DNA from: Candidatus Nealsonbacteria bacterium
GTDB lineage: Bacteria > Patescibacteriota > Minisyncoccia > Minisyncoccales > MHMH01
Reading direction: 5' to 3'
Length of the DNA stretch: 20,763 nucleotides
Assembly (NCBI GenBank): GCA_016186525.1
Contig: JACPLM010000028.1
Span: forward strand, 1-20,763
Below, piece by piece: positions 19,021 to 20,763 of the stretch (positions within the stretch are counted from its first letter, which is position 1; the number at the start of each line of letters is the position of its first letter). The notes under the pieces were generated by a model, which saw only the letters and a program-made list of their open reading frames with translations, ran no database searches and had not been told where the DNA came from. Both the position numbers and the translations under genes were made by a program.

Positions 19021-19033
19021 GCCTGTGGATAAC
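19021..19033 (+). promoter_or_regulatory. DnaA-box-like motif inside 13-nt repeat GCCTGTGGATAAC (copy 2)
   Basis: Identical to 5454..5466. TGTGGATAA lies at 19024..19032, 7 nt upstream of the lexA-fusion -35 element. Confidence 0.4.
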
Positions 19034-19039
19034 CTCCCG

Positions 19040-19069
19040 TTGACACCCGACTGAACGGTCGGGTATAAT
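19040..19069 (+). promoter_or_regulatory. consensus sigma70-type promoter of the LexA-methyltransferase gene
   Basis: TTGACA (19040..19045), 18-nt spacer, TATAAT (19064..19069). A second TATAAT at 19072..19077 abuts ATG 19078. No SD, so the mRNA is leaderless or nearly so. Confidence 0.6.
19045..19064. promoter_or_regulatory. perfect 7-bp inverted repeat in the promoter spacer (candidate operator)
   Basis: ACCCGAC-TGAACG-GTCGGGT fills the -35/-10 spacer. It could be a LexA autoregulatory site, or a weak hairpin terminating copA. Confidence 0.4.
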
Positions 19070-19077
19070 TGTATAAT

Positions 19078-20763
19078 ATGAAAAAAGAAGACGCCACTAA
19101 AAGGCAAAAACAGGTTTTAAAAATCATTTATAACAGCTTAATTAACGCCGGTTTTCCGCCGTCTTTCAGCGAGCTCAAAGAAAAATTAAAAATTTCCTCC
19201 AACCAGTCTCTTTTGGATCTTTTTTCAATTTTAGAAAGAAAAAGCTTAATCAGGCGTGAGGAGGGTTCTGCCCGTGGCATTAAAGTTCTCAAAGCTGGGT
19301 ATAAAGCCATTAATGCTTCGCCTCTGGCTCCGATAGTCGGCGCCACGTCAGCCGGCAGTTTCACCGAAGCCATAGAAGAAATTGATGCCTGGGTTCCTTT
19401 GTCAAAAGATACGGAAGTTATCTCCGAAGATGTTATAATTACTAAAGTGATAGGGGACTCAATGATAGGGGCCGGAATAAACGACGGGGATTTAGTCCTA
19501 TTTAAAAAGACAAACGATTTTATTTCGGGCGACATTGTCCTGGCCCAAACACCCGACGGCACAACGGTAAAGCGTTTCATCTCCCAAAATAAACCTCCCT
19601 ACAAATTTTTAAAGCCGGAAAATCCAAAATATAAACCAATTACTTTTACCGCCGAAACAGAGTTAATCGGCAAGAAAAAAGAGTTAGGACAATTTTTCAC
19701 TAAAAAATCAGACTATATTTTTCAGAGGTTAGAGAAATATATTAAAGGAAAGAATGTCGTTGATCCTTTTGCCGGAGAGGGAGATTTGTTAATCTGGGCG
19801 AAACAAAAAGGAGCAAAAACCGTAAAAGGCGTCGATGTTGACGAGAGATATGCCCAGAAGAAAGATATATCTCATGGCGATAGTATAAAAAATCCTTTGC
19901 AATATCAGTTCGTTTTAACTAATCCGCCATATCTTAACATAAATAAGGCTAGTGAAGAAATAAAAAAACGATATTTTGTTGATTCAGGATTCGAGGATTT
20001 GTATCAGCTTTCTCTCCGCACTATTATGGATAGCGACGAGGGTATTGTTATTGTTCCGATAAATTTTCTATCAGCTGAAAATTCAAGGAAGATTAGAGGC
20101 ATATTTTTTAATAAATTCGAAATCGTAGAGATGAATTATTTTACTTGTCAGGTTTTTCCAGATACGACATACAACGTTATAGCGTTTTATTACAGAAAGA
20201 AAAATAATCCGTTAGATACGAAATTTACCATAAAAACTCACATATACCCGCAAAACAAGAAAATAGATATTGAATTAAAGAAAGAGTTCGGCTGGACTAT
20301 AAATGGCTCATTCCTTAAAATTATTAAGAGCCAGAAGAATGAACTGGGGATATATAGATTAACAGAGGAAGACGTTAAAAAAAATCACGGGCACATGGAG
20401 GTACCGGCCACGTATAACCATGTAAAAAATAAAATTCCCATAACCGTATCGAAAAATTTATATGATTTAATAAAATCTAATATTATTTTATTAAAGGCTA
20501 TTGATAGCGGGACGGAAGAAGGTAAAATCAGTTTAGAAAATATAAGAAAATATGGGGTTGACTGCCTTGTCAGCAAAGAATCGTCAAGGCACATGATATA
20601 TTTTATTTTTGAGAATAAAGTATCTATTCCGGAGCAAGAAAAAATTATAGATATCTTTAACAGTGAAATAAATAGAATGAGAGACGAATATTCATCTTTA
20701 TTTTTGACTAATTACCGCGATAATGGCAGAAAGAGAATATCCTTTGACTTCACCTATAAATTT
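19078..20763 (+). CDS. lexA: LexA repressor (wHTH + S24 autopeptidase) fused in frame to a gamma-class N6-adenine DNA methyltransferase; 3' end beyond the window
   Basis: I translated it by hand: 562 sense codons with no stop up to the window edge, which is why it is absent from the ORF track. LexA part: RQKQVLKII...GFPPSFSELKEKL...SARGIKVL, Ala-Gly site in VGATSAGSF (19351..19356), GDSM Ser (19459..19461), TVKRF Lys (19570..19572) and LKPENPKYKPI. MTase part: GQFFT (19687..19701), VVDPFAGEGD (19756..19785), NPPY (19921..19932), followed by a TaqI-like downstream layout. Confidence 0.85.
   Translation, partial: MKKEDATKRQKQVLKIIYNSLINAGFPPSFSELKEKLKISSNQSLLDLFSILERKSLIRREEGSARGIKVLKAGYKAINASPLAPIVGATSAGSFTEAIEEIDAWVPLSKDTEVISEDVIITKVIGDSMIGAGINDGDLVLFKKTNDFISGDIVLAQTPDGTTVKRFISQNKPPYKFLKPENPKYKPITFTAETELIGKKKELGQFFTKKSDYIFQRLEKYIKGKNVVDPFAGEGDLLIWAKQKGAKTVKGVDVDERYAQKKDISHGDSIKNPLQYQFVLTNPPYLNINKASEEIKKRYFVDSGFEDLYQLSLRTIMDSDEGIVIVPINFLSAENSRKIRGIFFNKFEIVEMNYFTCQVFPDTTYNVIAFYYRKKNNPLDTKFTIKTHIYPQNKKIDIELKKEFGWTINGSFLKIIKSQKNELGIYRLTEEDVKKNHGHMEVPATYNHVKNKIPITVSKNLYDLIKSNIILLKAIDSGTEEGKISLENIRKYGVDCLVSKESSRHMIYFIFENKVSIPEQEKIIDIFNSEINRMRDEYSSLFLTNYRDNGRKRISFDFTYKF

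Follow-up and report, generated by a model that had tools for sequence, protein, structure and literature searches.

We analysed the last gene of a 20,763 bp stretch of DNA (the window), which is one entire contig (G000:C13) of a metagenome-assembled genome (MAG) of Candidatus Nealsonbacteria (569 kb in 64 contigs, 86% complete). In this gene, the repressor LexA is joined within one open reading frame (ORF) to a gamma-class N6-adenine DNA methyltransferase. Based on a comparison with relatives in which lexA and the methyltransferase gene are separate, we consider it about 80% probable that a 26-nt deletion left its scar at the junction, and that the gene encodes a single LexA-methyltransferase polypeptide without any programmed frameshift. 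Judged by its domains and its junction, the gene is a new singleton member of the LexA-methyltransferase fusions of the candidate phyla radiation (CPR).

The unfused state was found in three contigs: L020 (ENA ERZ4903072), L022 (Logan SRR13727527) and L024 (JGI 3300025317, retrieved with a pattern for the unfused junction). In each of them, a separate lexA of 204 aa ends in TELIGKMIKKL-stop, and the ATG of the methyltransferase follows after 2 nt. The closest homologues of the methyltransferase, 89-90% identical to it, stand alone at 383-390 aa and have the N-terminus MTKK(E/Q)LGQFFT; stand-alone homologues can also start with MNKKQLGQFFT. In the DNA, the start reads ATG ACR AAA AAA. Alignment of the window to L020, L022 and L024 at the DNA level left one gap of 26 nt, between positions 19673 and 19674, with both flanks conserved. 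Missing from the window are the last base of the Lys199 codon, the MIKKL codons, the lexA stop, the 2-nt spacer and the ATG AC of the methyltransferase start. Since the reading frames of the two genes lie 26 nt (2 mod 3) apart, the loss of 26 nt brings both into register. For an L024-like ancestor the breakpoints of the deletion are unique, and the right flank of L024 is identical to the window for the following 24 nt. The run of six A nucleotides (A6) at the junction aligns with the A-run encoding Lys3-Lys4 in all three unfused contigs, so there is no 1-nt indel in the run relative to these relatives. The alignments thus point to a fusion that was in all probability made by a 26-nt deletion ending just 5' of the A6, and not by a change inside it.

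We then placed the window LexA in a phylogenetic tree, where it fell within a clade (support 100/99) alongside five stand-alone LexAs. As it is nested among stand-alone proteins, the fused state is derived. Identity to the unfused L020, L022 and L024 lineages was 90-91% for LexA and 88-90% for the methyltransferase, and the four lineages are roughly equidistant, with synonymous divergence (dS) of 0.5-0.8. The ratio of nonsynonymous to synonymous divergence (dN/dS) was 0.08-0.10 in either half when the window was one of the pair, versus 0.08-0.13 among the unfused relatives, and neither half showed any sign of sequence decay. From these sequence comparisons, the fusion is evolutionarily recent and came from a small indel at this spot. 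A preliminary description of the window had named a recent, frameshift-generated fusion as one explanation for the joined gene. Its recency and its origin in a small indel at this place stand, whereas the event was apparently a deletion of 26 nt rather than the change of 1 nt in the A-run that was envisaged.

Both halves of the fusion can be assigned to known families (Table 1), and related proteins carry the database labels Candidatus Nealsonbacteria or Parcubacteria. The LexA part scores above the curated whole-protein cut-off of TIGR00498 (128-129 bits, cut-off 110.95) and contains the winged helix-turn-helix (wHTH) and S24 peptidase domains, the Ala-Gly cleavage site and the Ser/Lys dyad. 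Residues A92, G93, S128 and K165 are invariant across 63 homologues. What the LexA part does not have is the complete C-terminal β-strand of the family: MIKKL (residues 200-204) is lost, with KKELG of the methyltransferase in its place, and the TIGR00498 match spans model positions 3-193 of 203, while native relatives reach position 196 of 203. No other LexA copy was found in the genome, which also encodes RecA. The methyltransferase part belongs to the gamma class by its X-I-IV motif order and its match to the family hidden Markov model (PF07669, 29.6 bits, cut-off 25.3), and about 20-27 residues of its C-terminus are cut off by the contig end. The 0 frame contains no ATG, GTG or TTG from codon 129 up to codon 237, a position already beyond motif I. 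Without a canonical in-frame start of its own, the methyltransferase would stay translated only after an in-frame deletion. It could then be made only within the fusion, which would explain why the deletion that survived is an in-frame one.

Table 1. Position of the LexA part, the methyltransferase part, the promoter and the junction elements in the window.
Feature	Position	Strand	Evidence or remark
Promoter with candidate LexA operator	19040..19077	+	-35 TTGACA 19040-45; -10 TATAAT 19064-69
Palindrome CCGAC-N6-GTCGG (candidate operator)	19047-62	+	Extended form ACCCGAC/GTCGGGT 19045-64
Second TATAAT, touching the ATG	19072-77	+	
LexA part, residues 1-199	19078..19674	+	PF01726 1.1e-11, PF00717 3.1e-24, TIGR00498
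wHTH of the LexA part	19090-19278	+	
S24 peptidase domain of the LexA part	19330-19674	+	
LexA cleavage site Ala92-Gly93	19351-56	+	
LexA catalytic Ser128 (GDSM)	19459-61	+	
LexA catalytic Lys165 (TVKRF)	19570-72	+	
Deletion scar, 26 nt absent	19673..19674	+	DNA alignment and junction strings versus L020, L022 and L024
Gamma-class N6-adenine DNA methyltransferase part, residues 200-562	19675..20763	+	PF07669 Eco57I 9e-07
A6 run	19675..19680	+	Lys-Lys codons 3-4 of the methyltransferase, inherited from the stand-alone gene; no dedicated slippery site
-1 reading RVRTIFH-stop (TAA 19701-03)	19680..19703	+	By-product of LGQFFT-coding DNA, no LexA C-terminus
Motif X LGQFFT	19684-19701	+	
Motif I DPFAGEG	19762-82	+	
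Motif IV NPPY	19921-32	+	

The junction at 19669-19683 reads GGC AAG AAA AAA GAG (GGC 19669-71, AAG 19672-74, A6 19675-80, GAG 19681-83). The 0 frame is uninterrupted between the ATG at 19078 and the end of the contig (20763). Starting at 19680, the -1 frame gives AGA GTT AGG ACA ATT TTT CAC TAA, and the +1 frame meets a TAG at 19685-87. The preliminary description had given the A-run and both stops in exactly these places, and had likened the -1 tail to a LexA C-terminus. The alignment of LexA orthologues, which it had named as a check, does not bear out this likeness: the closest ~45 of 121 homologues finish with GKM(I/V)KK(L/I), none of the 121 ends in RT.H or RT..H, and the native ends are unrelated to RVRTIFH. 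In the unfused relatives, the 5' end of the methyltransferase gene read in the -1 frame gives RVRTIFY, RVRAIFY or TARTIFH and continues for about 21 codons without a stop. Since relatives with a free-standing lexA yield the same -1 peptide, the tail is a side effect of DNA that is constrained to encode ELGQFFT. The nearby -1 TAA of the window arises from the use of ACT, and not the synonymous ACA, as the Thr codon. We also considered a 7-nt match, GTTAGGA, between the -1 frame of the window and the LexA frame of the fusion in a genome of the same genus (G002) as a trace of an ancestral LexA tail. This candidate was rejected, as the match consists of the E-L-G codons of the methyltransferase, and the different native tail in the sister lineages also rules it out.

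The A-run with a nearby -1 stop is no more than what chance leads one to expect. The window (GC content 40.5%) contains 49 runs of at least six A nucleotides, eight of which are within the fusion gene, i.e., seven besides the one at the junction. The methyltransferase part contains an in-phase A8 (20377-84), two bases more than the junction run has. Across 6068 codon positions in the genes of the window, the median distance to a stop in the -1 frame is 10 codons, and at 46% of the positions a stop is reached within 8 codons.

A programmed -1 ribosomal frameshift or transcriptional slippage at the A-run would yield a free LexA-like protein ending in RVRTIFH next to the LexA-methyltransferase, and the preliminary description had suggested such a dnaX-like slip on G AAA AAA G. 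Programmed -1 frameshifting of the dnaX type uses A AAA AAG, with a Shine-Dalgarno (SD)-like element upstream and a hairpin downstream. Like dnaX, the junction has a homopolymeric Lys-Lys stretch, here exactly at the domain boundary, and a stop for a shorter product in the -1 frame, 8 codons on; the lack of another LexA in the genome also speaks for a second product. Still, we consider this reading highly improbable. The heptamer does not conform to X XXY YYZ, because a G precedes the run and the P-site tRNA would have to re-pair, with a mismatch, on GAA. Inspection by eye of the ~30 nt before the run showed no SD-like element. The 80 nt after it form a weak, AU-rich fold (-13.6 kcal/mol, z = -1.89; 11 of 200 shuffles did equally well) whose local stem starts ~33 nt away, in agreement with the earlier observation that no convincing stimulatory hairpin follows the run. 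Conservation is likewise absent, as the junction is unique and the relatives have a separate lexA and a -1 frame without a stop. Furthermore, the A-run was inherited from an unrelated context, namely the stand-alone methyltransferase, the gene has seven other such runs including the longer A8, and native LexA proteins do not end in anything like the -1 tail. Six A nucleotides are also short for slippage by RNA polymerase.

Homopolymers are frequent indel sites, and the joining of two separate genes had also been ascribed, as one possibility, to the gain or loss of 1 nt in the A-run, whether genuine or introduced by sequencing. This is hardly credible, as the alignment places the window 26 nt, and not 1 nt, from the unfused state. 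Working by hand from the sequence, we found that A5 or A7 would leave the methyltransferase frame without a start upstream of motif X. LexA would then have KKS or RVRTIFH at its C-terminus, and both are unlike GKMIKKL. Taking the junction sequence and its alignments together, we reject a programmed frameshift, a homopolymer error and a concealed LexA C-terminus at this position.

Several observations weigh against a functional, deletion-derived fusion. The low dN/dS would be seen in a functional fusion and in a very young one alike. Searching a degenerate 32-nt pattern of the fused junction gave 0 matches in metagenome_contigs and genome_contigs, making it a singleton, and the fused protein is absent from the 120 best protein matches; an exact look-up of the fused protein in the database returned no record. 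The contig ends 1.08 kb downstream of the junction, so that the assembly is fragile here and no restriction partner can be seen. In the AlphaFold2 (AF2) model of the native 204-aa LexA, the last β-strand comprises residues 195-203, and the predicted local distance difference test (pLDDT) score of the C-terminal domain is 85-91. The fusion keeps ELIGK of this strand and has KKELG for MIKKL, so that about half of the strand is gone and no linker is present, whereas long-standing fusions in relatives retain the full LexA end followed by a linker of 20-30 aa. Judging from the native model, the lost half-strand and the absent linker may impair folding or dimerisation of LexA. The AF2 model of the fusion itself has a pLDDT of about 90 for the methyltransferase and is uninformative at the junction, with pLDDT <50 for residues 169-200 and for the LexA C-terminal domain. 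This is probably because its alignment, chosen after MAFFT trials, contained only five LexAs besides 60 methyltransferases; an earlier alignment of 53 LexAs and 44 methyltransferases had been dropped, as the methyltransferases were mis-aligned.

The deletion could also be real but damaging, in which case the window would contain a young, crippled allele with a misfolded or undimerised LexA or a sterically blocked methyltransferase, tolerated because the restriction enzyme is dead or absent. The replacement of residues 200-204 in the last native strand and the missing linker, in contrast to established fusions, would fit such an allele, as would the decay of the restriction gene in the sister contig L020 (ORFs of 135 and 112 aa) and the absence of any restriction-enzyme homologue found in this incomplete genome. 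However, both halves of the ORF are intact, with all catalytic motifs and dN/dS near 0.1, the fusion scores the same against TIGR00498 as native proteins do, and no second LexA was found in the genome. An in-frame outcome is also to be expected if selection acted to keep the methyltransferase being made. We therefore regard a crippled allele as unlikely. Another reading is that the organism is truly unfused and that the 26-nt gap is an artefact of metagenome assembly or of choosing a minority variant for the consensus, which the singleton junction, the fragmented 64-contig MAG and the nearby contig break might favour. Against this artefact, which we consider quite improbable, the gap is not flanked by any repeat of a length that could collapse a de Bruijn graph, its breakpoints are unique and show no microhomology, the length of the deletion is exactly frame-restoring, and both flanks are otherwise well conserved. 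Moreover, short-read errors are not known to yield clean 26-nt deletions.

Upstream of the fusion gene, a palindrome is located within the spacer between the -35 and -10 elements. Its arms are conserved in G002 and L020, while the spacer inside the palindrome varies between them. Conserved arms with a varying spacer fit a LexA operator and autorepression, and we infer that LexA represses its own gene at this site. CCGAC-N6-GTCGG has one other match in the genome (G000:C33:434-449, L026), which makes up a hairpin stem (GGTCCGACATTACTGTCGGACTC); no convincing ORF covers this region, and the hairpin may be part of a structured RNA. With this sole extra match lying in a hairpin downstream of an ORF, no further promoter operator of this pattern was found in the genome, and hence no LexA regulon can be inferred from it. 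Just 5' of the -35 element, at 19023-19031, there is a DnaA-box-like sequence, TGTGGATAA, in both the window and G002 (L003); in L020, a DnaA-box-like element is found at the corresponding place in inverted orientation (TTATCCACA).

The deletion-derived fusion suggests the following model. In the ancestor, a lexA of 204 codons ending in LIGKMIKKL-stop would have been followed after 2 bases by the ATG of a gamma-class methyltransferase in a type II restriction-modification cassette. The deletion would have created a single ORF in which residues 1-199 of LexA are directly joined to the methyltransferase from its residue 3 to its end, presumably translated as one polypeptide of ~67 kDa. The wHTH of the LexA part is predicted to repress the promoter of the fusion gene through the palindrome. 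Self-cleavage at Ala92-Gly93 by the Ser128/Lys165 dyad, stimulated by RecA, would free the DNA-binding domain, and after DNA damage this cleavage would lead to more transcription of the fusion gene and consequently to more methyltransferase. Unfused relatives might obtain the same effect by co-transcription and coupled restart across the 2-nt spacer. Repression, RecA-gated cleavage and methylation by the fusion are all predicted activities.

We compared the locus to its relatives and to known systems. The unfused operons in L020, L022 and L024 have the same gene order and orientation as the window, and L020 has the same promoter palindrome. They differ in having two genes with a stop and 2 nt between them, where the window has 26 nt fewer and one ORF. 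A downstream endonuclease gene is visible in L022 (intact) and L020 (split), whereas in the window it would lie beyond the contig end.

Fusions of LexA to methyltransferases also occur in the relatives G002, G003, G006, G008, G025, G031 and G039, and methyltransferases of the beta, gamma and other classes are commonly fused to LexA in this group. Such fusions are viable in other genomes: proteins of ~490 aa combining LexA with PF01555 dominate a list of 120 best matches, and 7999 of the 8000 scored candidates passed E ≤0.001, although not all of these are fusions. The fusion gene shares with the CPR class a complete LexA in front of a methyltransferase in one ORF and a palindrome in its own promoter, but no other instance of its junction was found, and its nearest relatives are unfused. 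P0124, the fusion of G002 (Candidatus Nealsonbacteria), likewise has a LexA with wHTH and S24 domains before a restriction-modification methyltransferase, with a palindrome in its own promoter, and its locus is syntenic with the window in following copA. Fusions of the P0124 type are annotated as 'repressor LexA' or 'modification methylase'. The CPR fusions contain beta-class (PF01555), C5 or other gamma-class methyltransferases, whereas that of the window is a gamma-class enzyme of the Tsp45I-system type. They are also recurrent and keep the LexA C-terminus with its linker, while the window has a truncated last strand, no linker and a singleton junction. In the LexA tree (P0130/P0260, P0124, P0126, P0141), LexAs that are joined to a beta-class methyltransferase branch in between stand-alone members of the same orthologue group, e.g., the fused P0130 is sister to the unfused P0260 (211 aa) with support of 100/97. 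This interspersion indicates several independent fusion or separation events.

The autoregulating methyltransferases M.SsoII, M.Ecl18kI, M.EcoRII and M.MspI, which have an N-terminal helix-turn-helix (HTH), probably share the same logic, in that a DNA-binding module represses the promoter of its own gene. Their modules are short HTH extensions with neither a protease domain nor damage-sensing cleavage, and sequence kinship with the fusion is not expected. Promoter binding by M.SsoII is reported by Karyagina et al. 1997, as referenced in PMC3874152. Our literature search, which did not include the paper on the SOS network of Patescibacteria (PMID 28618189), found no publications on LexA-methyltransferase fusions.

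Relatives also show which genes may follow lexA. An endonuclease gene of the Tsp45I family, or related to it, follows the homologous methyltransferases in G019, L029, L022 and L024, whereas the window contig ends inside the methyltransferase, and the rest of the genome (86% complete) yielded no restriction endonuclease homologue. Across the group, lexA is followed by a gamma-class methyltransferase with Tsp45I-like enzymes (L022, L024 and L029), by a HinfI-type pair overlapping the lexA stop as ATGA (L030 and L031), by DpnI alone (L032-34) or by a C5 methyltransferase (G019). The 3' end of lexA, GGTAAAATGATTAAAAA-TTA-stop, is conserved with unrelated restriction genes immediately after it (L029:5560-5680, L030:5560-5680, L032:5001-6387, L004:1459-3131). 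One of these partner sets consists of an unknown 259-aa gene, followed by an Eco57I-type methyltransferase and a Tsp45I enzyme. From its sequence context, the lexA stop codon looks like the anchor of a site for swapping cassettes. A more tentative idea is that LexA in this CPR clade serves as a damage-gated controller of the cassette after its stop rather than as the head of a broad SOS response, and that small deletions at the junction, be it a 2-nt spacer or an overlap, repeatedly make fusions, the window containing one newly formed.

LexA-methyltransferase fusions are abundant in Patescibacteria, and the window with its unfused relatives provides a before-and-after pair for their origin. 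That one 26-nt deletion would turn two tightly coupled genes into a fusion makes for a simple and repeatable route into this class. It also suggests that the functional link, i.e., control of a restriction-modification cassette by LexA, is older than the physical fusion. The two states form a natural matched pair for asking what a fusion adds beyond coupling in an operon. Finally, a tempting reading of the junction as a recoding site is removed.

Related contigs show some further arrangements. L022 encodes an endonuclease-like protein of 313 aa (1936-2877) with weak matches to Tsp45I and DpnII. Its counterpart in L020 (2281-3029) is split into the 135-aa and 112-aa ORFs, which are 88-91% identical to its two ends. 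The middle ~86 residues are gone, leaving a decayed restriction gene that adjoins an intact methyltransferase. A stand-alone copy of the methyltransferase (66% identity, start MENIDIKEKKQLGQFFT) was found in a genome of the same genus (L017, G003:C51:1-768), where it lacks an upstream lexA and adjoins a DEAD-box helicase gene; this genome also contains a fusion of LexA to a beta-class methyltransferase (L010). In the Parcubacteria contigs L030 and L031 (7319-8714), the cassette of lexA, methyltransferase and HinfI is followed by genes with SMODS and SLATT_4 domains, a signalling pair resembling those of cyclic oligonucleotide-based antiphage signalling systems (CBASS), so that lexA marks the border of a small defence island.

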